Below are positions 3,038 to 59,097 of a stretch of DNA of 64,000 nucleotides, one piece after another. Source of the stretch: Candidatus Shapirobacteria bacterium. GTDB lineage: Bacteria; Patescibacteriota; Microgenomatia; UBA12405; BS750m-G30. The notes under the pieces are model-generated. The model did not search any database and had not been told where the DNA came from. It was given only the letters and a program-made list of their open reading frames with translations. The stretch covers positions 10,041-74,040 of the forward strand of contig JBDRHA010000006.1 of the NCBI GenBank assembly GCA_043817235.1, written 5' to 3'. How positions within the stretch are numbered: the first letter of the stretch is position 1; each line of letters starts with the position of its first letter. A program made the position numbers and the translations under genes.

Positions 3038-4450
3038 CTAAAAGGTCGCCGTCGCCCGATATGTAATCGCGTTCCAATAATCGCCGGCTTGCTGGGTAGA
3101 AGAAACAATTGCTCGGTAGCAAACATAAGCATTTTCATTATCGGCCACTGTACCAGAATAGAAAATAGTTTGGTGAGCTTGAGTAGCGGATGCGTCTGCA
3201 AATTGTTTGGCGCAAAAAACGCCGTCGCAATCGTCGTCAGTAGAGGTATATTCAAAAGCTGCAGTATTCGCATCCACGTTTTCCAGGGAGTAGCCAAATC
3301 CCTTAGTATCAGTGCTTACCCATTCATCGGTTTGGGTGTGAGAAGCAGTGGTATTGTCTCCGGGCGTATCTGGAATTTCCGGAGCGGTAGCTCCTACCAT
3401 TGTTAGCTGATTATTTTCTAGAGCAGTGACAGCATAGCCGCCGTCAGCATTAGTGGAAACGGTCAAGTTTTGAGCCAGGTCAGCAAAAGAGCCGATAGAC
3501 AAAGAGCCAAAGGGTACAGTAGTTGCTGTAGAGGTAACATCAAGTGCATTGCCGCAGGCGGTTTCGCCGATAGCTATTCCGGCAATAGAAAAAGAAATAG
3601 TCGGATCAACTGTAGCAGTGACTCGCACTGACTCAATAACGGCAACTTTGGTAGTGGTGGAATCAATCGCTGTGTAGTTGGCATCAAGATTATCAACAAT
3701 AATACTGTAAGTATCGGCAGTTCCTGCAGTGTGGCCGGTAGTGGCCGAAGGATTAATTATTTCAGCAGCGCTGCCTACAACAAAAGTCATAGATCGGCCC
3801 GGGTCGCCTGGGCCGGAATAGCGGCATTCAAAGCAATGGTAGCCGGATGCACATCCTGATCCGGCGGAAGCGGTGGCCGTGCCGGTAACAAAGTCATAGT
3901 AGCTGGCCACATCATTCGGGCAGGTGACATCTGTGCCGGAAACTGAATTAAAATCCCAGCCTTCGTTATCAGGATGGCCGTCGTTGGGAGTAGTGGAATC
4001 GGCTTTAATCCGTACTTTAATGGCACCATTGGGGATAGCAGAAGTGGTTGTAAAAGTAATAGTGTGAGTGCCGGTCCGGTCAATGACAAATTCATCATTA
4101 GCATCATCGTCCGCCGCGTTTAAAGCGGAAGTAACGGCAAATTCGTCACTATCTATAACATAGTCAACAGTATAAGTATTGCTGGTAGCAGTGTAAACAA
4201 CTGTGTCTCCGGTAAAAATGTTGGCGGTGGTGGTGGAGGGAGTGCCGGCGCCAGCCATTTTAATAATCGTCGTGCCAGCGGTTAACTGCTCATTATTTTT
4301 GCCATGAAAAGAAAGGCGGGAGGTTTCTAAAGTATCGGCAATTGAAGTTAGGTTCGCGGATTCTAAAGAAAAAGGAAAAACAAAGCTCAGGCTAATAATT
4401 AGAATAAAATAACTTAAAACCCTAATTATTTTTTTGCTATTTTTCTTCAT
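3038..4450 (-). CDS. secreted Thr/Ser-rich protein A1: signal peptide plus C-terminal domain shared with the 6299-7072 protein
   Basis: Signal peptide MKKNSKKIIRVLSYFILIISLSFVFPFSLES. The C-terminus KQFADASATQAHQTIFYSG...AGDYWNAITYRATATF aligns with RQFADQEGAESAQIVMSS...AGNYENAITYIAVPGY of the 6299-7072 ORF. Confidence 0.55.
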   Translation of the reverse strand: MKKNSKKIIRVLSYFILIISLSFVFPFSLESANLTSIADTLETSRLSFHGKNNEQLTAGTTIIKMAGAGTPSTTTANIFTGDTVVYTATSNTYTVDYVIDSDEFAVTSALNAADDDANDEFVIDRTGTHTITFTTTSAIPNGAIKVRIKADSTTPNDGHPDNEGWDFNSVSGTDVTCPNDVASYYDFVTGTATASAGSGCASGYHCFECRYSGPGDPGRSMTFVVGSAAEIINPSATTGHTAGTADTYSIIVDNLDANYTAIDSTTTKVAVIESVRVTATVDPTISFSIAGIAIGETACGNALDVTSTATTVPFGSLSIGSFADLAQNLTVSTNADGGYAVTALENNQLTMVGATAPEIPDTPGDNTTASHTQTDEWVSTDTKGFGYSLENVDANTAAFEYTSTDDDCDGVFCAKQFADASATQAHQTIFYSGTVADNENAYVCYRAIVSSTQQAGDYWNAITYRATATF

Positions 4451-4460
4451 AACTGGTTTG

Positions 4461-4721
4461 CTAAATTTCTTTATTAATATTTTTACCTAATTTTAATTTC
4501 CTTGTCAATGGGTAGTATTTAAGCAAAACAGCGATTAGAAAGGCGATAATCAAAGCCGTTATAAGTCTAATAGGAACAATCCAAAACCTCGTAGCGAATT
4601 TAATTATAGGGCTATTTCCATTGGGCGCCAGACTTAATTCTGCCAAGTAAGGGCCGGGAAAGAAAGAAGAAAAGGCGCAGTCTTTTTCCTGGCAGGTGAG
4701 CAGGCGCCCGGAAAAAGACAA
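4461..4721 (-). pseudogene. C-terminal TM-anchor segment of surface protein B2, separated from its body (4746-5471) by an in-frame TAA
   Basis: Same frame as the 4746-6299 ORF; the stop is the reverse complement of tta at 4746-4748. ATRFWIVPIRLITALIIAFLIAVLL parallels TTFFWIIPWRAMTIALLIIVLIVLL of B1 (2058-3008). Confidence 0.4.
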
Positions 4722-4745: not shown

Positions 4746-5471
4746 TTATTTAATTTTTTTGCCAAAGATATTATAGATCTCTATTTTCCCGGCGCTTTTA
4801 AAAAAATTTTCTCCTAAATTAGCGGCCTTAATCGTGAATTTTATTTCCTGACCTAAATCAGCCAATTTAGGTTGGCTGAAAAACTCGCTTATTTCTCCTT
4901 TGGCTTCCAGATCAGCGGTTTGGGAAACTGTAATTAAAATATTACTGCCGATCTGGCCGGCCAAGCCGGGCTGCGCCTGCTGCTCGGAGAAGCTCACTTC
5001 AGGGATTTGCTGAATAAAAAACGTCGCATAATAATCTTTTTGGGGAAGATCCAAAGGCGCAGTAATTTTCAAAACCAGCTGCTGGCTTTGGTTAGGCTCC
5101 AGAACAAAAGTATCGCCCAAATTTATATTAGCGTTATTAAGTTTAAACTCGGGAAGACCCGTAAAAATATCCGGTTCTTGATATGTAATTTGGCCCTCCT
5201 TCGCCAAGGCTTCGGAGGGTAGAAAAAACCTAATTTCAGTTTGTAAATAGAGCAGGGAAGTGCCTAGGTTTTTTACCTCATAAGCTTGGGTGATGCTTTT
5301 TCCCGGCTGCAAGACAACTTCCAAAAGAGGAGGGGAAAGGGAGAGGGAGAAGCTCTGACCAGCGGCGAGGCAAGCCCTGTTTCCCCTGGCCGCTATAAAG
5401 GATATAACGGTTATAACGATTATAATTTTTATAGCGGCCAACAGGAAAAAAAGGACCAAGAGAGCAAGAGA
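4746..5471 (-). CDS. surface protein B2 ectodomain, paralog of 2058-3008. It has no start codon of its own and is read through in frame from the upstream four-helix-bundle ORF.
   Basis: Signal-peptide-like LALLVLFFLLAAIKIIIVITVISFIAA, then LLEVVLQPGKSITQAYEVKNLG..., comparable to LIKLTAIPPRLEISANPGDVVVDQLKVRNEG of B1. The ORF caller fuses it to 5520-6299. Confidence 0.45.
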   Translation of the reverse strand, partial: SLALLVLFFLLAAIKIIIVITVISFIAARGNRACLAAGQSFSLSLSPPLLEVVLQPGKSITQAYEVKNLGTSLLYLQTEIRFFLPSEALAKEGQITYQEPDIFTGLPEFKLNNANINLGDTFVLEPNQSQQLVLKITAPLDLPQKDYYATFFIQQIPEVSFSEQQAQPGLAGQIGSNILITVSQTADLEAKGEISEFFSQPKLADLGQEIKFTIKAANLGENFFKSAGKIEIYNIFGKKIK

Positions 5472-5519
5472 GGCGGTGCCCGCCTCTCGGCGGTAATTTA
5501 GCCGCTTTTTGAGGAGGTT

Positions 5520-6020
5520 TTCTCGAAAACCCCCATTTTTAACAAAGTCCTCCTCCAGCCAGCGCAGTTTTTGGTCTAAAAGCTGGTTTGTCTGGTTAAT
5601 TAGGCAGATCATGGTGTTGGCTGCGGTTTCTCCGCTGCTCTGGTATTTTTTATAATCGTTATAATTTTTATAACGCTTATATACCAAAGCTCTAACAGCT
5701 TTGGCGCTCGGATCGTCTTTAGCCCAAATTTTCAGCTTTTTTTGACGCAAAAAGTCTTGGTAGTCGTTGAGAAGCTCTTCTAAAGAAGCGCGGGCAACGG
5801 CTAAGAGATTGAGTTTGAGCGCACTACTTTTTTGCAAGTATCCTTCGGCGATGTTCTGTTTGCCGGAGCGTGCGGCCTGAATAAGCTGATCGCTTTGCCG
5901 TGAGAAGTTCTTATAACTTTTATGACGGTTATAATTTTTATAAGGGCCAGAAAAACATTTATCTATGTATTTCTCGCAAAACTCCACCGTAAAATCGTGG
6001 ATTATTTCTGCCTGCTGGAA
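5520..6020 (-). CDS. four-helix-bundle protein (TIGR02436-like; the 23S rRNA intervening-sequence protein family). N-terminus unresolved; the upstream part of the ORF, to 6299, is MITE-derived.
   Basis: SDQLIQAARSGKQNIAEGYLQKSSALKLNLLAVARASLEELLNDYQDFL matches the family hallmark Q..R.a.Si..NIAEG...s.......l.iA.gSl.El (from memory). Tyr/Asn-rich 9-bp repeats lie at both ends. Confidence 0.5.
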
Positions 6021-6039
6021 AAATGGAAGAGAGCGATAC

Positions 6040-6250
6040 CCTCCTTCGCTAAAGCTACGGCGGGCAGGCCCTCCTTCGCGGGCAAGCCCTCCTCTGTCAT
6101 TGCGAGGAGTCCCGATGCTTCTTTTAGTCACCGGGACGACGTGGCAATCCCGTTTTGAGATTGCTTCAGTTTCGTTCGCAATGACATTTTTGTTAACCCC
6201 TGTTGCTGCGGTGTGGTTCGGGTCACGCCCGGTGTGTGATTTATCTTCTT
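6040..6250. repeat. MITE-like repeat cluster embedded in frame in the 5' part of the 4746-6299 ORF
   Basis: tgtcattgcgaggagtcccgatgc ... gtggcaatcccgtttt ... gttcgcaatgacattt, plus the ggtgtggttcgggtcacgcccggtgtgtg hairpin. Confidence 0.75.
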
Positions 6251-10571: not shown

Positions 10572-10852
10572 CAAAAAATCACACACTCGGTGTGAATTCG
10601 AACCACACCGGGCGTGTGGGAAGCGGGGTGTCGTCGCGAGAGGTGTTCAGTGTCATTGCGGGGCTCGCAATGACAGTCCAAATAGTCATCCCGAGCGCAG
10701 TCGAGGGATCTTTTGAACCAGAAAAAAGGTCGGTTAGTTTCCAAAGATTCCTCGGCTACGCCCCGCAGTTGCGGGGCTGCGCTCGGAATGACACTGAAAA
10801 CAGATTCCCGATCAGGTTGAGAATGACAAAGGAGGTCAGAGTGAGGCTGTAA
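10572..10852. repeat. MITE-like palindromic repeat cluster
   Basis: cacactcggtgtgaattcgaaccacaccgggcgtgtg hairpin, gtcattgcggggctcgcaatgaca, gtcatcccgagcgcagtcgagggatctttt and cgccccgcagttgcggggctgcgctcggaatgacac. Confidence 0.8.
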
Positions 10853-39669: not shown

Positions 39670-40320
39670 ATGCTAGTTTTAGGCTTGGGCAATCCGGAAA
39701 AAGAATATCAAGATAATCGCCATAATACGGGCAAGCAGTTTTTAGACTTTTTAGACCAAAATAACGAATTAAATTGGCAAAAAAGAAAAGACTTGCTTTG
39801 TTTTTTGGCCAAGAAAGATGATTTATATTTGGCCAAATCTCTAACTTATATGAATGATTCGGGTCAAGCTGCTCAGGCTTTAGTAAAAAAATTAAAAGTA
39901 AAATTAAATAATTTTTATTTAGCTCATGATGAGCTGGATTTAAAATTAGGGGAGTATAAAATTAGCTTTGGCAAAAGTTCGGCTCTTCATAAAGGAGTTT
40001 TATCAGTAGAGCGGGAGCTAAAAAGTAAAGATTTCTGGCGCGTTAGGATTGGGGTAGATAATCGCGATTCAGAAAACCGGATTGCGGGGGAAAGATATGT
40101 TTTGCAGGATTTTCGATCAGAGGAAGAAAAAAAGCTAAAAAAAGTATTTGAGGAAATCATTGTGTCATTGCGGGGGTATTGTCATCCTGAGCGAAGTCGA
40201 AGGATCTTTCCGAAGATTCCTCGATCCCGCAGCTGCGGGACTCAAGATGACTATTTAAACTGTCATTCCGAGCGCAGCCCCGCTACTGCGGGGCGTAGCC
40301 GAGGGATCTTTGAGAATTAA
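39670..40320 (+). CDS. pth: peptidyl-tRNA hydrolase with about 45-aa C-terminal extension encoded by MITE repeats
   Basis: MLVLGLGNPEKEYQDNRHNTGKQFLD is the Pth N-terminal signature with catalytic His. Residues after about 170 (GYCHPERSRRIFPKIPRSRSCGTQDDYLNCHSERSPATAGRSRGIFEN) are the translation of the repeat units at 40168-40317. Confidence 0.9.
   Translation: MLVLGLGNPEKEYQDNRHNTGKQFLDFLDQNNELNWQKRKDLLCFLAKKDDLYLAKSLTYMNDSGQAAQALVKKLKVKLNNFYLAHDELDLKLGEYKISFGKSSALHKGVLSVERELKSKDFWRVRIGVDNRDSENRIAGERYVLQDFRSEEEKKLKKVFEEIIVSLRGYCHPERSRRIFPKIPRSRSCGTQDDYLNCHSERSPATAGRSRGIFEN
40168..40317. repeat. MITE-like repeats forming the 3' end of pth
   Basis: gtcatcctgagcgaagtcgaaggatcttt, cccgcagctgcgggactcaagatgac and tgtcattccgagcgcagccccgctactgcggggcgtagccgagggatctttg. 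Confidence 0.8.
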
Positions 40321-40353
40321 GTAGGGATTTCCCTCTGGTAAAATTATTATTAA

Positions 40354-40644
40354 ATGCAAAAACAGTTCTTTGTTTATATCTTAAGCAATTTCAAAAGAAA
40401 CGTTCTTTGCATTGGGGTTACCAGTAATTTAAGGAAAAGGGTTTGGGAACACAGGCAAGATTTAGTTCAAGGATTTACCAAAAAATATCAAGTTCATGAC
40501 CTGCTCTATTACGAAGTGTTTACTGATTCTATGCTGGCGATTGCCAGAGAAAAACAGCTAAAAAAATGGAACAGAAGAAAGAAAAATGCCTTAATTGCGA
40601 CGACCAATCCTAAACTTAAAGATCTTTATTCAATAATTTCTTAG
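40354..40644 (+). CDS. GIY-YIG nuclease superfamily protein (UPF0213-like small standalone GIY-YIG)
   Basis: FFVYILSNFKRNVLCIGVTSNLRKRVWEH contains the GIY/YIG motifs and the conserved Arg and Glu. 96 aa. Confidence 0.8.
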   Translation: MQKQFFVYILSNFKRNVLCIGVTSNLRKRVWEHRQDLVQGFTKKYQVHDLLYYEVFTDSMLAIAREKQLKKWNRRKKNALIATTNPKLKDLYSIIS

Positions 40645-40790
40645 ATTGACAAAAGATCTTTCGACTTCGCTCGGGATGACAGGAAACAATGTCATTCCGA
40701 GCATAGTCGAGGAATCTTTGGCGATTAAGCGAAGTATTTTTCTGATTTACGAAAGATCCTTCGGCTACGCTCAGGATGACTTATGGATCA
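40641..40790. repeat. MITE-like repeat cluster
   Basis: ctttcgacttcgctcgggatgaca, tgtcattccgagcatagtcgaggaatcttt and ccttcggctacgctcaggatgac. Confidence 0.8.
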
Positions 40791-47878: not shown

Positions 47879-47892
47879 TAGTAACGTGCACA

Positions 47893-47925
47893 AAAAAAGC
47901 CTCGAATCCGAGGCTGCTTTAAGCT
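47893..47925 (-). terminator. Rho-independent terminator/attenuator hairpin in the rplJ leader (minus strand reads GCCTCGGATTCGAGGC followed by TTTTTTT)
   Basis: Perfect 6-bp stem GCCTCG/CGAGGC with a 4-nt loop and a 7-T run on the minus strand. Lies between the inferred rplJ promoter and the rplJ start. Confidence 0.55.
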
Positions 47926-48014
47926 TTAAGTTTTTGGCTTTAAGCTAATTACCGCCTCGGTAAGATTTTTAAGTCCCGCAGCTGCGGGAGACTTACTGTC
48001 TTGGGCTAGACTTA

Positions 48015-48043
48015 TATTACCAGATTATCCTTTCTTGTCAAGC
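48015..48043 (-). promoter_or_regulatory. candidate sigma-70 promoter for rplJL: TTGACA, 16-nt spacer, TAATAT on the minus strand
   Basis: Reverse complement of 48038-48043 is TTGACA; reverse complement of 48015-48020 is TAATAT. Confidence 0.45.
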
Positions 48044-52746: not shown

Positions 52747-53414
52747 TGGAAAAAAATCTAAAAAGTTTTTTAAATCAGTATTTTGCTCTTGAAATAATCC
52801 CCGGCAAAAAAATTCGTATTCCTTATTGGCGCAATAAATTTCCCCCTTGGGGCGGAAGAATTCAGGGGCCATATGGGGGCAAGGGAATGCCGGCTCAAAT
52901 CAAAAGAATTACCCTGAAAAAAGCCAAGCAGGCCAGGATTAATTTGACGGATTTAAATTCCGATCAAATTCGTAACTTTATGAAGCAGAAAAAGATTGGG
53001 GTTGAATGTTCCGGCTTTACTTTTCAAGTTCTAAATTTTTTAAAACCGGGGTTTTACAAGCACTTGAAAAAAGCGCCGGGAATAAGCCCTAATCCGATCA
53101 GGAGATTTAATGCGGCTGCTCTCACTTCAGCAGAAAACAGCCGCCCAATAAAAAAAGTAAAAGAAATTCAAGTAGGAGATTTAATCGCCGCCAGCTTTGA
53201 GAAGAACATTATTGATCATGTTTTAATAATTGTTGATATTTCTAAAAAGGAAATTATTTATGCTCATTCTTCCAGTCAAACCCCCACTTCCGGCCCGCAT
53301 CTGGGCAAGCTAAAGATAGCCAACCCGAGCGCCAGCCCCCAAGAGCTTAAATTTGTCGAAAAAACCAAGAGGCCTTTGAAGATTTTAGGAATAAGAAGGA
53401 TCGAGGGGCAGTAA
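52746..53414 (+). CDS. hypothetical protein, possibly NlpC/P60-like papain-fold hydrolase; overlaps rplA stop (ATGA)
   Basis: Candidate catalytic Cys in ECSGFTFQVLNFL and His in NIIDHVLIIVDISKKEIIYAHSS. Assignment is tentative. Confidence 0.35.
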   Translation: MEKNLKSFLNQYFALEIIPGKKIRIPYWRNKFPPWGGRIQGPYGGKGMPAQIKRITLKKAKQARINLTDLNSDQIRNFMKQKKIGVECSGFTFQVLNFLKPGFYKHLKKAPGISPNPIRRFNAAALTSAENSRPIKKVKEIQVGDLIAASFEKNIIDHVLIIVDISKKEIIYAHSSSQTPTSGPHLGKLKIANPSASPQELKFVEKTKRPLKILGIRRIEGQ

Positions 53415-53457
53415 AAGCTAAAGGAGGTCTTTGTCGTTCCCGACTTAATCGGGTTTC

Positions 53458-53662
53458 CCTTGTCATTCCGAGCGCAGCCCCGCCGTTGCGGGGCGTAGTC
53501 GAGGAATCTTTTGGGGAATTAACCAAACACCGCTTGGACAAGAAAGATCCCTCGACTGCGCTCGGGATGACCATTTGAACTGTCATTGCGTGGCAATCTT
53601 GCTTTTCCGACGGGATCGCTGCGCCCCCGACGTGACGTCGGGGGACTCGCGATGACATTTAA
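53458..53662. repeat. MITE-like repeat cluster
   Basis: tgtcattccgagcgcagccccgccgttgcggggcgtagtcgaggaatctttt, ccctcgactgcgctcgggatgac and the full element tgtcattgcgtggcaatcttgc...gggactcgcgatgaca. Confidence 0.8.
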
Positions 53663-53743
53663 GAAATTTTAACCCTATTTTATCTACGATCGTGAAGAAA
53701 ATGAGGGAGATTATTAAAATCAAAGCCAAATTATTCTGAAAGT

Positions 53744-56215
53744 TTGATATACTGGAAAAAAGTGAAGTTTATAATAAATAAAGAAATATTTAATCGTTGG
53801 CCTGGTTTAAAAATAGGTGTAATTGTCGGTTTAGAAATTGATAATATCAAGGCCAGAAGAAAAAGCCTTGACTTGTTAAGACAAGAAGAGCAAAAACAAA
53901 GAAATAGTTATTCTTTGGAAGACTTAGAAGAGAAAAAAGTTCTTCAAGCCTGGCGCCAGACATATCAGGATTTTGGGGCAAGCTCCAAAAAGTATAGTTC
54001 TTCAATAGAAGCTTTACTAAAAAGAGTTCTTTCAGGCAGTGTTCTTCCAGATATTAATCCCTTGGTAAACTTTTATAATTATCTTTCTTTAAAATACTGC
54101 CTTCCTTTGGGAGGAGAAGACTTAGACAAAATTAAAGGAGATATTTCTCTTGCCTTTGCCGTTGGCGAGGAAAAAGGGCAATATATTGGTTCTGATAAGA
54201 TTGAGGCTGCTCTTCCCGGAGAAGTAATTTATAAAGATGAATTAGGATTTATTTGCCGCCGTTTTAACTGGAGGGAAGCAGATCGGACTAAGTTTACGAC
54301 TCAAACTAAAAATGCAATCTTGATTGCCGAGTACTTACCCGAGGGCGAGTTTTCCCTATTTGATCAAGCAGGAGAAGAATTGGCCAAGATAGTTGAGGAG
54401 GAGCTGGGTGGAAAGACTTTAAAAATTATTTTAGATAAAAAAAATCCCGGTTTTGAGTTTAAGTTTTCTTCGAAAGCGAGCTTGAGAGCAGAAAAAGAAA
54501 AAGTAATTTATACTCCATCGGCGGGGTGGATGGTCGAGGAGAAACTAAAAATCTTGCTTGCCAAAGCAGTAAAAGATATTTGGGGCAAGAAAATTAGTAA
54601 AAAAGAAATTAATATTGAGCACCCGACGATAGCTAATCACGGCGACCTTTCGTCTAATTTAGCTTTAATTTTAGCCAAAGAACTTAAAAAATCTTCCCAA
54701 GAGCTTGGCCAGGAGCTTCTTTCCTATTTTAATAAACAAGAAATTTCCATGATAGAAAAAATTGAATTTGCTTCACCAGGATTTTTAAATTTTTGGTTGA
54801 CTCCCCGATATCTGACTTCCGAAGCAAAAAAAATTTCTAACCAAAAGAGCTTTGAGAAAGAAATGCGGGAACTTGGCAAGGGCAGGACTGTAGTGATTGA
54901 TTATTCGGCCCCGAATATTGCTAAAGCTTTTGGCATTGGCCATTTGCGCTCGACGAACATTGGCCAGGCAATTTACAATCTTTATTCTTTTCTAGGCTGG
55001 AAAACAATTGGCGACAATCACTTGGGCGATTGGGGAACGCAATTTGGCAAGCTGATTGTCGCGATTCAAAAGTGGTGGAGAAAAGATTTGAACAAATTGA
55101 CAATCAATGATTTAGAAAAGCTTTATGTCAAATTCCACAAAAAAGAGAAGCAAGACAAAAGATTAGAAAAGGAAGGCCGGCTTTGGTTTAAGAAATTAGA
55201 AAAGGGGAACAGAGAGGCCAAAAAAATCTGGCAATGCTGTGTAAATATTTCTTTAAAAGAATTTGACCGTGTTTATCAGCTGCTGGAAATAAAGATTGAT
55301 TATGCGTATGGCGAGGCTTTTTATCATTTTAAAGGCTGGATGGAGAAAGTAGAAAAAGATTTGGGGAAAAATAATCTTTTGGAAAAAAGCCAAGGAGCAA
55401 CAGTAATAAAGATTCCCGGTTTTAAAGTGCCTGGGATGATGATTAAATCAGATGGAGCAACTACTTATTTACTGCGAGATATGGCGACCCTGTTTTTTAG
55501 GAAAAAGACTTGGAATCCGGATTTAATTATTTACGAGGTAGGGGCGGATCAAAAATTTCACTTTCGCCAACTTTTCGCCGCCGCTCAAAAGGCCGGTTAC
55601 TTTCAAAAAGAGCAATTAATTCACGTTGCCCATGGTTTAATCCGCTGGAAGCATGCCAAGTTTTCAACACGCAAGGGAGATACGATCCATTTAGAGGATA
55701 TTATAAAAGAGGGGATTAAAAAAGCCGGAAAGCTGGCTGAAAAAAAAGACCGAAAGATTGCCCAAGCAGTAGGGATTGGGGCAATTAAATTTAATGATTT
55801 AAAGCAAGAGCCGGAAAAAGATATTATTTTTGACTGGGATAAACTATTAGCTCTCAATGGCTACAGCGCGCCCTACTTGCAGTATACTTATGCTCGCTGT
55901 GCTTCAGTAGAAAAAAGGGCAGGCAGTAGTAAGCTTACGGTTCAAAGCCAAAAGCTGAATGCCGAAGAAATTAATTTGCTAAGAATTTTTTACCAGTTTC
56001 CCGAAGTGATTTTGGCAGGGGCGAACTTTTTTGCTCCGCACCTGCTGGCCCAGTATTTGTTTAAGCTTGCCCAAAGCTTTAATTTGTTTTACCAAAAAAA
56101 TAGAATTATAGAAGAAGAACCAAATTATTTTAGATTATTTTTAACCAAGACTACCGGGCAAATCTTAAAAACAGGCTTGAGAATTTTGGGTATTCCGGTT
56201 TTAGAAAGGATGTAA
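53744..56215 (+). CDS. argS: arginyl-tRNA synthetase fused to a ~280-aa N-terminal extra domain (B3/4-like)
   Basis: From about residue 290: HPTIANHGDLSSNLALILAK (N-terminal Arg-RS add-1 domain); SAPNIAKAFGIGHLRSTNIGQAIYNLYSFLGWKTIGDNHLGDWGTQFGKL (class I HIGH region); C-terminal DALR anticodon-binding region. Total 823 aa versus about 550-600 for typical bacteria. Confidence 0.9.
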   Translation: MIYWKKVKFIINKEIFNRWPGLKIGVIVGLEIDNIKARRKSLDLLRQEEQKQRNSYSLEDLEEKKVLQAWRQTYQDFGASSKKYSSSIEALLKRVLSGSVLPDINPLVNFYNYLSLKYCLPLGGEDLDKIKGDISLAFAVGEEKGQYIGSDKIEAALPGEVIYKDELGFICRRFNWREADRTKFTTQTKNAILIAEYLPEGEFSLFDQAGEELAKIVEEELGGKTLKIILDKKNPGFEFKFSSKASLRAEKEKVIYTPSAGWMVEEKLKILLAKAVKDIWGKKISKKEINIEHPTIANHGDLSSNLALILAKELKKSSQELGQELLSYFNKQEISMIEKIEFASPGFLNFWLTPRYLTSEAKKISNQKSFEKEMRELGKGRTVVIDYSAPNIAKAFGIGHLRSTNIGQAIYNLYSFLGWKTIGDNHLGDWGTQFGKLIVAIQKWWRKDLNKLTINDLEKLYVKFHKKEKQDKRLEKEGRLWFKKLEKGNREAKKIWQCCVNISLKEFDRVYQLLEIKIDYAYGEAFYHFKGWMEKVEKDLGKNNLLEKSQGATVIKIPGFKVPGMMIKSDGATTYLLRDMATLFFRKKTWNPDLIIYEVGADQKFHFRQLFAAAQKAGYFQKEQLIHVAHGLIRWKHAKFSTRKGDTIHLEDIIKEGIKKAGKLAEKKDRKIAQAVGIGAIKFNDLKQEPEKDIIFDWDKLLALNGYSAPYLQYTYARCASVEKRAGSSKLTVQSQKLNAEEINLLRIFYQFPEVILAGANFFAPHLLAQYLFKLAQSFNLFYQKNRIIEEEPNYFRLFLTKTTGQILKTGLRILGIPVLERM

Positions 56216-56217
56216 AA

Positions 56218-56778
56218 ATGCCGACTAGAGCCGAAAGTAACATAACAAGGACAGAAGAAAAAATTAGCAGGGAAGCCAACTACTTTTTTCGTTTAACTGG
56301 ATCAGAGACGGCCTGTTTTTTACTTGCTTGCGCTAGAGCCTTGGAAGGAAAAAAAAGATTTTGTTTTAATCTTTATTTTTACCCAACCGGCAATGCAAAG
56401 GTAGGGGTTGACAGTGCCGATTTAGCGCGAGAAGGTTTGCGTTGTTGGCGAGATTCCGGATTATCCGAACTTTCAGCGAGCTTTTATGCTAAAAGCTATC
56501 AGCTTTTGTATTGTTTCGCCCAGGTAGTTGCTTCTGGCGAAAAAGTCAGAACATTGACTTCAGGGGATGAAATTACTTTAGAAGTGCTAACCGAAACATA
56601 TCCGGAGCAGAATTTGGCAGGTTTGTTTCGCGGCCTACATTCCGGCAGCAGACATTTAATTGATTCTCAGCCAGAGTTATGCTCAACAAGAGTCATCCTG
56701 GTCGATGTTTGGGAAAACAAGTTTTCTGATGGACAAAGGAATGAATTAAGCGGGATGGCGCCGGGTAATTTATTTTAA
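56218..56778 (+). CDS. hypothetical protein
   Basis: 186-aa ORF 2 nt after the argS stop. Confidence 0.35.
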   Translation: MPTRAESNITRTEEKISREANYFFRLTGSETACFLLACARALEGKKRFCFNLYFYPTGNAKVGVDSADLAREGLRCWRDSGLSELSASFYAKSYQLLYCFAQVVASGEKVRTLTSGDEITLEVLTETYPEQNLAGLFRGLHSGSRHLIDSQPELCSTRVILVDVWENKFSDGQRNELSGMAPGNLF

Positions 56779-57021
56779 CCGTGCAAATAATTCAGAATCT
56801 CTAGTGGTGATAGGTAAGAGGGTAAAAAACATTTTGCGACGTGGAAGTGGTGAAATTACCCCTGGTTTTTAATTCTTTCCTATAGATTAGTGGTTTTTAT
56901 TCTGCTGATAAATTTTGATACATTAATTGCTACTTGACACTTTTCCGTGGTTGTTTTTTACTAAGAAGCTTTCTTTATCTGCCCGATAAGTTTTTAGTGA
57001 GTTTAATATTGTATTAAATCT

Positions 57022-59097
57022 ATGTTCCGCGCCAAAAAAGAAATTAAAATTAAAAAAATCAAAAAAAGGAGTGGAAAAATTGTCCGCTTCGCGCCTTCTA
57101 AGATTGAGCGAGCAATTCATCAGGCTTTTAAAGCTGCTGGCGAGGGTGATAGAAAAAAAGCTAAGCTGCTAACCCAAAAGGTAATCAAAGAACTGGAAAA
57201 ACGCTTTAATTCTACTATTGTTCCTGAGGTGGAACAGGTGCAGGATATTATTGAAGGAATTTTCCAAAGACATAATCTGGAAAAGACGCTTAAGGCTTTT
57301 ACTTTATATCGGGAATTGCACCGCAAACTGCGGGATATTTCATCATTAGTGGACTCCGATGAGCTAATTGAGAAATATTTAGATCATAGCGATTGGCGAG
57401 TAAAAGAAAATGCCAACATGACCTACTCTCTTCAGGGATTAAATAATCATGTGGCAAGCATAATTTCTTCTAACTTCTGGCTGAATAAAATTTATTCTCG
57501 GGATATTCGAAAAGCTCACGCCCAAGCTGATATTCATATTCATGACTTAGCTTCACTTTCTCCTTACTGCACTGGTTGGGATTTAAAAGACCTGCTTATT
57601 AAGGGGTTTGGGGGAGTGCCCGGCAAAGTAAACAGCAAGCCGGCCAAACACTTTGGTGCGGCTTTGGGTCAGCTAGTTAACTTTTTCTACACCATCCAAG
57701 GAGAAGTGGCGGGAGCGGTTGCTGTTTCTAACTTTGATACTTATCTGGCTCCTTTTATTCGCCTTGATAAGCTTAAATATTCCGAAGTTAAGCAGGCAAT
57801 GCAGGAATTTCTTTTTAATATGAATGTGCCTACTCGGGTTGGTTTTCAAAGTCCTTTTACTAATGTTACCTTGGATTTAAGACCGACTAAAACAGTTGGA
57901 GAGGAGGCAGTTATCATCGGCGGTAAGCCGACTAAACACAAATATAAAGAATTTCAAAAAGAAATTGACATCTTTAATCAGGCATTTGCTGAAGTAATGA
58001 TGGAAGGAGACGCGCAAGGCCGGGTTTTTACTTTTCCCATTCCCACTTATTCTATTACCAAGGACTTTGATTGGGATAACCCGAAGCTGGAGCCGGTTTG
58101 GGAGATGACCCGAAGGTATGGCGTGCCCTATTTTTCTAACTTTGTCAATTCGAGCATGGATCCGGATGACGTTAGAAGTATGTGTTGTCGGTTGCGGCTA
58201 GACAATCGGGTTTTAAGAAAACGCGGCGGTCTTTTTGCCGCCAACCCGTTGACAGGCTCTTTGGGAGTAGTGACGATTAATTTATCGCGCATTGGCTACC
58301 TAGCTAAAAAAAGAGGAGGCAGTGAAAAAGACAAAAAAAATCAATTTTTGAAAATCTTAAGACAGATGATGGATCTAGCCAAAGACTCTTTGGTTACCAA
58401 AAGAGAAATGGTAGAGCAATTTACTAAACAGGGTCTTTATCCTTACTGTCGGTTTTACTTGGCTGATATTTATGAGCGCAATAATGTTTATTGGAAAAAC
58501 CACTTTAATACGATTGGTCTAAATGGGATGAATGAAGCCTTGATTAATTTATTGGGAGCATCTATCGCCGATTTTCAAGGAAAGGAATTTGCTTTAGAAA
58601 TAATGAGGTTTATGCAAGATAGAATTTTGGATTATCAAAAAGATACTGGAGAAATGTTTAATTTAGAGGCCACCCCGGCTGAAGGAACAAGCTACCGCTT
58701 TGCTCAAATTGATAAAGCTAAATATCCTAAAATCAAAGCGGCTAACGAGAAAGATGTTCAGAATAAAAATATTCCTCCTTTTTATACAAACTCTACCCAT
58801 CTACCGGTGGATTATACGGATGATATTTTTGAAGCTCTAGATCATCAAGACGATCTTCAGTGCATGTATACCGGCGGAACGGTTTTGCATGGCTTTTTGG
58901 GAGAGAGTCTGCCCGACACAGGGAGTGTCAAAAGTTTGGTAAAGAAAATAGCCCAGAACTATAAACTTCCTTATTTTACCCTTACTCCTACTTTTTCAAT
59001 TTGTCCTACCCATGGTTATCTTAAGGGGGAGTGGAAGTATTGTCCTAAATGCGATGAAGAAATTGGTTATTCTAAAAAAAAGAAAGGAGGTAAATAA
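57022..59097 (+). CDS. nrdD: anaerobic ribonucleoside-triphosphate reductase (class III) catalytic subunit, lacking the glycyl-radical tail
   Basis: N-terminal ATP-cone (KIKKRSGKIVRFAPSKIERAIHQAFKAAG); large barrel domain; C-terminal Zn-ribbon-like CPTH...CPKC. The ORF ends before any RVxGY glycyl-radical motif. Confidence 0.85.
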   Translation: MFRAKKEIKIKKIKKRSGKIVRFAPSKIERAIHQAFKAAGEGDRKKAKLLTQKVIKELEKRFNSTIVPEVEQVQDIIEGIFQRHNLEKTLKAFTLYRELHRKLRDISSLVDSDELIEKYLDHSDWRVKENANMTYSLQGLNNHVASIISSNFWLNKIYSRDIRKAHAQADIHIHDLASLSPYCTGWDLKDLLIKGFGGVPGKVNSKPAKHFGAALGQLVNFFYTIQGEVAGAVAVSNFDTYLAPFIRLDKLKYSEVKQAMQEFLFNMNVPTRVGFQSPFTNVTLDLRPTKTVGEEAVIIGGKPTKHKYKEFQKEIDIFNQAFAEVMMEGDAQGRVFTFPIPTYSITKDFDWDNPKLEPVWEMTRRYGVPYFSNFVNSSMDPDDVRSMCCRLRLDNRVLRKRGGLFAANPLTGSLGVVTINLSRIGYLAKKRGGSEKDKKNQFLKILRQMMDLAKDSLVTKREMVEQFTKQGLYPYCRFYLADIYERNNVYWKNHFNTIGLNGMNEALINLLGASIADFQGKEFALEIMRFMQDRILDYQKDTGEMFNLEATPAEGTSYRFAQIDKAKYPKIKAANEKDVQNKNIPPFYTNSTHLPVDYTDDIFEALDHQDDLQCMYTGGTVLHGFLGESLPDTGSVKSLVKKIAQNYKLPYFTLTPTFSICPTHGYLKGEWKYCPKCDEEIGYSKKKKGGK

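Follow-up and report, generated by a model that had tools for sequence, protein, structure and literature searches.

The 64-kb stretch analysed here (the window) comes from a Candidatus Shapirobacteria genome and carries a single argS gene, in which a module resembling canavanyl-tRNA(Arg) deacylase (CtdA) is encoded in frame ahead of a complete arginyl-tRNA synthetase (ArgRS). CtdA, discovered in 2023, is a standalone enzyme that removes canavanine, a toxic mimic of arginine, from tRNA. With residues counted from the TTG start of an 823-aa open reading frame (ORF), the gene is laid out as follows:

53744..56215, plus strand: coding sequence of the CtdA-like-ArgRS fusion, an uninterrupted ORF of 823 aa from the TTG at 53744, likelier 817 aa from the GTG at 53762
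53744..54472, plus strand: CtdA-like B3/B4 deacylase module, residues 1-243 (Pfam, PDB phmmer, AlphaFold, Foldseek)
53948-54343, plus strand: Pfam B3_4 core, residues 69-200 (PF03483)
54077..54118, plus strand: pocket segment 1, with N112 (54077-54079), G123 (54110-54112) and E125 (54116-54118), equivalent to N105, G116 and E118 of S. enterica CtdA (Se-CtdA)
54254..54277, plus strand: motif CRRFNWRE, residues 171-178, in which C171 corresponds to C166 and E178 to Q173 of Se-CtdA
54323..54325, plus strand: I194, pocket wall, equivalent to I189 of Se-CtdA
54473..54529, plus strand: inter-domain linker, residues 244-262 (KASLRAEKEKVIYTPSAGW), of low model confidence and directly followed by M263
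54542..54796, plus strand: ArgRS N-terminal Add1 domain (tRNA D-loop-binding), residues 267-351 (PF03485, Arg_tRNA_synt_N, E 1.5e-19)
54866..55837, plus strand: ArgRS class I catalytic domain, residues 375-698 (PF00750, tRNA-synt_1d, E 8.8e-80)
54932-54943, plus strand: HIGH-equivalent GIGH, residues 397-400 (motif comparison)
55661-55678, plus strand: KMSKS-equivalent FSTRKG, residues 640-645 (motif comparison)
55877..56212, plus strand: DALR anticodon-binding domain, residues 712-823 (PF05746, DALR_1, E 4e-28)

The encoded protein is identical to NCBI MFH1601518.1, an entry of 817 aa named 'arginine--tRNA ligase [Candidatus Shapirobacteria bacterium]'. Nearly every fused homologue has its first residue opposite query residue 7-8, and the NCBI product has 817 aa; translation therefore probably begins with the GTG at 53762 (residue 7), not with the TTG at 53744. 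Pfam, model confidence and analysis of the sequence and its frames placed the beginning of the ArgRS part at about residue 263-267 (M263, ATG at 54530), with a module of ~243 aa and a linker of ~20 aa preceding it. The first-pass annotation, made from the letters of the window, had proposed an independent N-terminal domain of ~280 aa in front of a complete ArgRS starting around residue 290. Its two-part architecture was borne out by the Pfam domains and TIGR00456, and an extra module is indeed present; the dimensions had to be corrected to those given above, as Pfam and the model put the start of the synthetase at M263/K267 and the proposed end of the domain, 54600, lies ~70 nt too far downstream.

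Judged from its sequence, the synthetase part is intact: the argS equivalog TIGR00456 of NCBIfam matched residues 271-823 with 439.8 bits (cut-off 261.65), the Add1 and DALR domains are both present, and the signature motifs GIGH and FSTRKG are kept, as they are across 52 fused and unfused relatives. Gly takes the place of the first His of the HIGH signature (GIGH) in 50 of the 52 ArgRSs of this lineage. A full-length AlphaFold model (mean predicted local distance difference test score, pLDDT, 91.5; predicted template modelling score, pTM, 0.73) contained two well-folded modules and a low-confidence linker at about residues 244-262, where pLDDT was 61-64 and fell below 50 at residues 248-253. 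Such a combination of confident modules, an uncertain linker and a lower pTM fits a predicted tethered domain.

Identity and pocket of the N-terminal module

The profile of the B3_4 family (PF03483) matched residues 69-200 at E 8.7e-24 and 84.5 bits (gathering score 29.3), and the isolated N-terminus reached 87.4 bits. When residues 1-266 were compared with all PDB sequences by phmmer, the best two matches were the CtdAs of P. canavaninivorans (9f7e, E 2.4e-26) and S. enterica (9mkl, E 1.9e-25); the beta subunit of phenylalanyl-tRNA synthetase (PheRS-beta) appeared only at E 0.46, and the PheT profile TIGR00472 scored 13.6 bits, below its cut-off of 402.65. An AlphaFold2 model of the module, built from an 84-sequence alignment, had a pLDDT of 88.5 and a pTM of 0.85, with residues 251-266 disordered. 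In a Foldseek search of the PDB with this model, CtdA ranked first (E 4e-19; target-normalised TM 0.87; 226-230 aligned columns of 226-231 residues), followed by bacterial PheRS-beta at E ~1e-7 and TM ~0.5, and the top 32 matches, down to E ~1e-2, consisted of CtdA, PheRS-beta chains and LRRC47. Sequence and predicted structure thus both place the module, which has the helical insert specific to CtdA, in the CtdA branch of the B3/B4 fold and not in the PheT branch. The first-pass annotation had suggested a B3/4-like domain of PheT type and a profile and structure search to check it; the B3/4 part was upheld by the PF03483 score and the Foldseek match to B3/B4-fold structures, and the PheT part gave way to CtdA.

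The aminoacyl pocket of CtdA is formed by N105, G116, E118, C166, Q173 and I189 in S. enterica numbering (Maldonado et al. 2025, PMC12449066). In the same study N105A, G116H/W, Q173G and C166G inactivated the enzyme, and C166 tuned the selectivity between canavanine and arginine. All six positions are kept in the window protein, as N112, G123, E125, C171, E178 and I194, and the peptide motifs quoted in the first-pass annotation are present and map onto this conserved pocket. E178, at the Q173 position, matches the Glu of C. perfringens CtdA, a natural variant that is catalytically tolerated (PMC12449066), and the basic residues R172, R173 and R177 are located at the pocket entry. Only the Asn is common to the pockets of CtdA and PheRS, while C166 tells CtdA-1, the characterised clade, apart from CtdA-2, which is uncharacterised (PMC12449066). 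The conserved Cys, together with pairwise scores, is the basis on which we tentatively assign the module to CtdA-1.

Pocket conservation extended to other proteins in which such a module precedes ArgRS. In a narrower set of fused proteins the N, G and E positions and the N-W-R motif were invariant (28/28), and in a wider set of 67 each of these positions was kept in 59-63. The C166 position was occupied by Cys in 45 and by Thr in 15 of the 67, and by Cys in all 119 standalone relatives from the Candidate Phyla Radiation (CPR) and DPANN. Mean identity to the window protein over 65 fused proteins was 41.5% for the N-terminal domain and 38.9% for the ArgRS body; the module is as similar as the synthetase and is therefore under comparable constraint to an essential enzyme.

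Recurrence and origin of the fusion

The spread of the architecture was followed in a full-length search of 5.8 billion proteins (best 120 matches examined), an exhaustive HMMER search of 1.84 billion representatives of 50%-identity clusters (best 150 examined) and a survey of the best 80 loci among GTDB species representatives. Among the best 120 matches were the identical NCBI protein and ~30 other proteins combining B3_4 and ArgRS at 40-62% identity, from NCBI, JGI, ENA and Logan assemblies, and 35 of the best 150 clusters had the fused architecture, at identities down to 32%. Overall, ~65 distinct fused proteins with differing linkers and 32-66% identity were collected from independent assemblies and sources, on contigs that include one of 564 kb and one of 949 kb, the latter with MFA7301194.1. 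In-frame fusion was found in 13 of the best 80 loci, labelled as Shapirobacteria, Gottesmanbacteria, unclassified Microgenomates, Dojkabacteria or "Patescibacteria group"; the taxon labels on some third-party metagenome-assembled genomes (MAGs), e.g. "Gammaproteobacteria" and "Bdellovibrionales", are possibly unreliable. At a further 6 loci the module gene and a separate argS are immediate neighbours on one strand, the module gene being upstream and the gap at most ~30 nt, which brings the ArgRS-linked loci to 19 of 80. Adjacency to one particular gene would be expected by chance in a fraction of a percent of cases, so the linkage to ArgRS is far above chance.

An assembly or sequencing error that joined adjacent ctdA-like and argS genes into one long ORF would be conceivable, given the A8 homopolymer at codon 232, close to where the module ends, and the six other genomes in which the two genes are separate neighbours. 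The C-terminal motif of the family, LDKxNPxxE, carries on in the present frame past the A8 run, however, the other two frames reach stops, and no in-frame stop lies ahead of ArgRS; the sister protein P0122 was recovered from four samples, and the many fused proteins with their different linkers and independent assemblies speak against an error as well. We regard the chance of such an artefact as negligible. A frameshift at the A8 run was ruled out by frame analysis of the junction. It had also been proposed beforehand that a module encoded separately in most relatives would point to an artefact; most module relatives are indeed separate genes, yet the fusion recurs in ~65 divergent proteins, and the objection failed.

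The nearest relatives of the module are standalone proteins of ~234 aa, 43-56% identical to it, which abound in CPR bacteria and DPANN archaea. Genes for tRNA-Arg or tRNA-Lys were not enriched beside standalone members in 58 loci. Among unfused ArgRSs the closest (P0124) is 63% identical, and its locus is syntenic with the window (secE-nusG-L11-L1-unknown ... argS ... nrdD); no CtdA remnants were detected upstream of the syntenic unfused argS genes of loci L081 and L083, even at E<=10. The ArgRS body of the window protein is 60-63% identical to unfused Microgenomates ArgRSs and 64% to its fused sister, and fused ArgRSs intermingle with unfused ones when ranked by similarity. In a neighbour-joining tree of the N-terminal domains, 12 changes between the fused and unfused states were needed, the tree not being robust enough for counting events. 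A single origin of the fusion was set aside on these 12 changes and the near-equal identities of the ArgRS bodies, and the sequence comparison suggests repeated gain and/or loss. Since adjacent ctdA-argS pairs persist in other genomes, the fusion most likely arose by stop-codon loss or read-through in such a pair, and M263, just ahead of the first ArgRS helix, is the probable ancestral argS start.

Other architectures were noted among the relatives. One CPR ArgRS (P0291) has an N-terminal domain of metallo-beta-lactamase fold, P0277 has two tandem CtdA-like modules ahead of ArgRS, a ~260-aa insertion splits the Add1 region of P0127, and P0230 and P0241 bear N-terminal extensions of ~240-270 aa without a Pfam match. 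Fusions of the CtdA-like module to an amidase (GatA-like, PF01425; truncated at the contig end) and to a NUDIX hydrolase were seen as well (P0002, P0062).

The module is, moreover, linked to lysyl-tRNA synthetase (LysRS). In 5 of the best 80 loci it is fused or adjacent to a LysRS of class I or II, with identical residues at the scored pocket positions. These loci include:

L039:1994-4468: module at the C-terminus of a class I LysRS, archaeon
L043:2414-4690: module at the C-terminus of a class II LysRS, Gribaldobacteria
L076:2477-4696: module at the C-terminus of a class II LysRS, another MAG
L062: module at 3998-4705 directly upstream of a class II LysRS at 4746-6158, Woesearchaeota

None of the 120 LysRSs closest to that of L043 carries the module, and the LysRS fusions are therefore sporadic; they explain the name 'lysyl-tRNA synthetase' on some standalone members. 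The partner synthetases, ArgRS and LysRS, all charge long basic amino acids. The position of Se-CtdA A95 aligns with R244 of PheRS, a proposed contact of the C75 phosphate (PMC12449066). In our alignments it is Pro in 61/67 ArgRS-fused modules (the window protein included) and in 5/5 modules adjacent to argS; both class II LysRS fusions have Arg, and the standalone proteins have Pro in 61 cases and Arg in 48. The choice of Pro or Arg here may indicate the tRNA or synthetase with which a standalone member works.

Proposed function and its alternatives

We propose that the protein is the ArgRS of this organism with a catalytically competent CtdA-type deacylase tethered to its N-terminus by a flexible linker of ~20 residues, which would give the enzyme a post-transfer editing domain of its own, and we put the probability of an editing function in general at roughly two in three (0.68). 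We infer the deacylase activity, its substrate and the choice between editing in cis and in trans from homology, the fold, the conserved pocket, the recurring fusion and the adjacency of the genes. In the proposed process, ArgRS would occasionally charge tRNA(Arg) with a near-cognate arginine analogue; the tethered pocket would capture the 3' end of the mischarged tRNA, either before it leaves the enzyme or right after its release; and the ester bond would be hydrolysed and the tRNA recycled. Correctly charged Arg-tRNA(Arg) would be spared because the pocket itself is selective and because ArgRS and EF-Tu shield it, as shown for S. enterica CtdA. Our confidence in canavanine as the natural substrate is clearly below that in editing in general, because the hosts are CPR/DPANN episymbionts, no guanidine riboswitch accompanies the gene and the module is also fused to LysRS.

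Several observations weigh against the proposed editing function, or against canavanine as its target. The window protein shares 27-30% full-length identity with the characterised CtdAs. About 6 of the 67 fused proteins are divergent with a degenerate pocket, and a large fused sub-clade carries C166T, R168A and E173Q, so function may have drifted in some lineages. The hosts are episymbionts of groundwater and sediment with no obvious exposure to legume canavanine, and a function strictly specific for canavanyl-tRNA(Arg) would leave the LysRS linkage unexplained. Neither a guanidine riboswitch nor another RNA element was found near the gene with Rfam, searched over the whole window at the gathering threshold and over 53300-57100 at E<=1.

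The module might instead be a non-catalytic appendage that binds tRNA or protein and raises the affinity for tRNA(Arg) or mediates dimerisation or assembly. CPR ArgRSs with a tRNA_bind domain (PF01588) at the same N-terminal position (P0133, P0233) would agree with such a role, and so would the partial or degenerate N-terminal domains of P0299, P0308, P0314, P0357, P0367 and P0275, the ~6 of 67 degenerate pockets and the dimer of S. enterica CtdA in the crystal. A mere binding module would not need pocket residues, however, and the full pocket is kept in the window protein and in most fused proteins, including the positions N105, G116 and Q173 at which mutation kills CtdA. In addition, ArgRS retains its own Add1 and DALR tRNA-binding domains, and P. 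canavaninivorans CtdA is monomeric in solution. The tRNA-Arg(CCT) of the window has the canonical identity elements A20 and C35. With Add1 retained, these elements normal and the deacylase pocket conserved, the earlier suggestion of a tRNA-binding module that offsets reduced tRNA identity elements finds no support, and a purely binding role in general appears improbable to us.

Somewhat less improbable, though still unlikely in our estimate, is an active deacylase whose substrate is another neutral or basic arginine or lysine analogue met by amino-acid-scavenging symbionts, acting on tRNA(Arg) and, in the LysRS-linked versions, on tRNA(Lys). Citrulline, ornithine, homoarginine and thia- or oxa-lysine are conceivable candidates. 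Members of the subfamily are scattered across CPR bacteria and DPANN archaea, organisms that are not plant-associated, the same pocket residues occur in the 19 ArgRS-linked and the 5 LysRS-linked of the 80 loci, the riboswitch is missing from the vicinity of the gene, and the authors of the CtdA survey themselves propose additional substrates for organisms without canavanine exposure. Against this stand the pocket, which is of the canavanine-type CtdA-1 with C166 included, and the fact that canavanine, besides weakly arginine, is the sole substrate demonstrated for any member of the family.

The LysRS fusions point to a broader "basic amino-acid analogue" problem. As a more speculative extension of the editing proposal, which we hold to be possible and rather doubtful, ArgRS, long regarded as lacking proofreading, would have gained a dedicated post-transfer editing domain in a large set of CPR bacteria, LysRSs of both class I and class II would have acquired the same module in DPANN archaea and CPR bacteria, and the target would be a long basic amino acid analogue of endogenous or host origin (e.g. 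citrulline or ornithine from arginine catabolism) and not plant canavanine. If so, there would be an unrecognised fidelity problem at Arg and Lys codons, together with a modular solution to it.

Related systems and genomic surroundings

No editing domain has been described for ArgRS (Hauth et al. 2023), and the sole proofreading known for tRNA(Arg) is that by standalone CtdA. In the three primary CtdA papers the enzyme is strictly standalone and the words "fused" and "fusion" are absent; the 2025 CtdA survey covered reference proteomes, found the family mainly among the Actinobacteria, Firmicutes, Bacteroidetes and also Proteobacteria, and leaves CPR unmentioned. In the open-access literature and bioRxiv, no report came to light in which CtdA or a B3/4 domain is joined to ArgRS or LysRS; the first-pass annotation had said that a B3/4-ArgRS fusion would be novel. 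The fused proteins are public, but their database name is only "arginine--tRNA ligase".

The module shares with CtdA the B3/B4 fold with its helical insert, the sequence similarity at E 2.4e-26, the pocket including the Cys, and the tie to tRNA(Arg) and ArgRS. Described CtdAs, in contrast, are single-domain trans editors of ~230 aa that are often under guanidine riboswitches, whereas the putative deacylase module of the window is covalently fused to the N-terminus of ArgRS in a CPR host, lacks the riboswitch and is 27-30% identical to them. The B3/B4 domain of PheT belongs to the same superfamily and fold, has the catalytic-water Asn in common and is, as predicted for the window module, a cis-editing domain embedded in a synthetase; it differs in being an internal domain of a multi-domain beta subunit of a class II enzyme, with pocket residues and a Tyr/m-Tyr specificity that are not those of CtdA. 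The same logic, a deacylase fold that exists both as a trans protein and fused to a synthetase, holds for the INS domain of prolyl-tRNA synthetase (ProRS) with YbaK/ProXp, alanyl-tRNA synthetase (AlaRS) with AlaX, and threonyl-tRNA synthetase (ThrRS) with ThrRS-ed; there the cis form is the textbook case, whereas for ArgRS only the trans form, CtdA, was known, to which the window protein adds a putative cis form. A canonical bacterial ArgRS of ~560-600 aa matches residues 263-823 (Add1, Rossmann core and DALR; 60-63% identity to related unfused Microgenomates ArgRSs), and the window protein carries an additional 262-residue N-terminal deacylase module plus linker. The deacylase family is thus known, and so is the principle of editing domains appended to synthetases; what appears to be new is their combination with a synthetase thought not to edit.

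By Rosetta-stone logic, the CtdA-ArgRS fusion independently confirms from genomes that ArgRS and tRNA(Arg) are the partners of this deacylase family, and it is the first candidate for a cis-editing ArgRS, testable by published assays. The family is common in minimal-genome CPR and DPANN organisms without a link to legumes, which argues that mischarging of tRNA(Arg), and possibly of tRNA(Lys), with some analogue is general enough for the gene to be retained. Hundreds of entries named "arginine--tRNA ligase" or "lysyl-tRNA synthetase" conceal the module.

Some features of the surrounding DNA were also noted. Scans of the gene flanks for promoters and terminators gave counts no higher than those in shuffled sequence. 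A palindromic, GC-rich repeat is dispersed over the window: its 16-mer GTCATTCCGAGCGCAG is present 36 times with at most 3 mismatches against 0.23 expected; the copies lie mostly in inverted pairs ~80-95 nt apart, resembling an intergenic element of the repetitive extragenic palindrome (REP) or miniature inverted-repeat transposable element (MITE) type. The sites are 53420-53660 and 35 others (e.g. 1681-1949, 10659-10792 and 40181-40780), and one copy just upstream of the fusion gene gives rise to a spurious 103-aa ORF on the minus strand (53347-53658). Between argS and nrdD, the ~590 nt at 56216-56800 have no similarity to the syntenic locus L081, where genes of 420 aa and 191 aa are found; the sole content is an odd-looking 186-aa ORF (56218-56778), there is no Rfam match, and the segment may be decayed or replaced. 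The gene for ribosomal protein L1 (51982-52746) encodes a Lys/Glu-rich N-terminal extension of ~70 aa, and the L1 of the syntenic relative is of similar length (257 aa). An L10-leader RNA (RF00557, 47.4 bits) lies on the minus strand at 47884-48023, ~4 kb upstream of the L1 gene, and from its position and strand rplJ appears to be separated from rplK-rplA and opposite to it in orientation.

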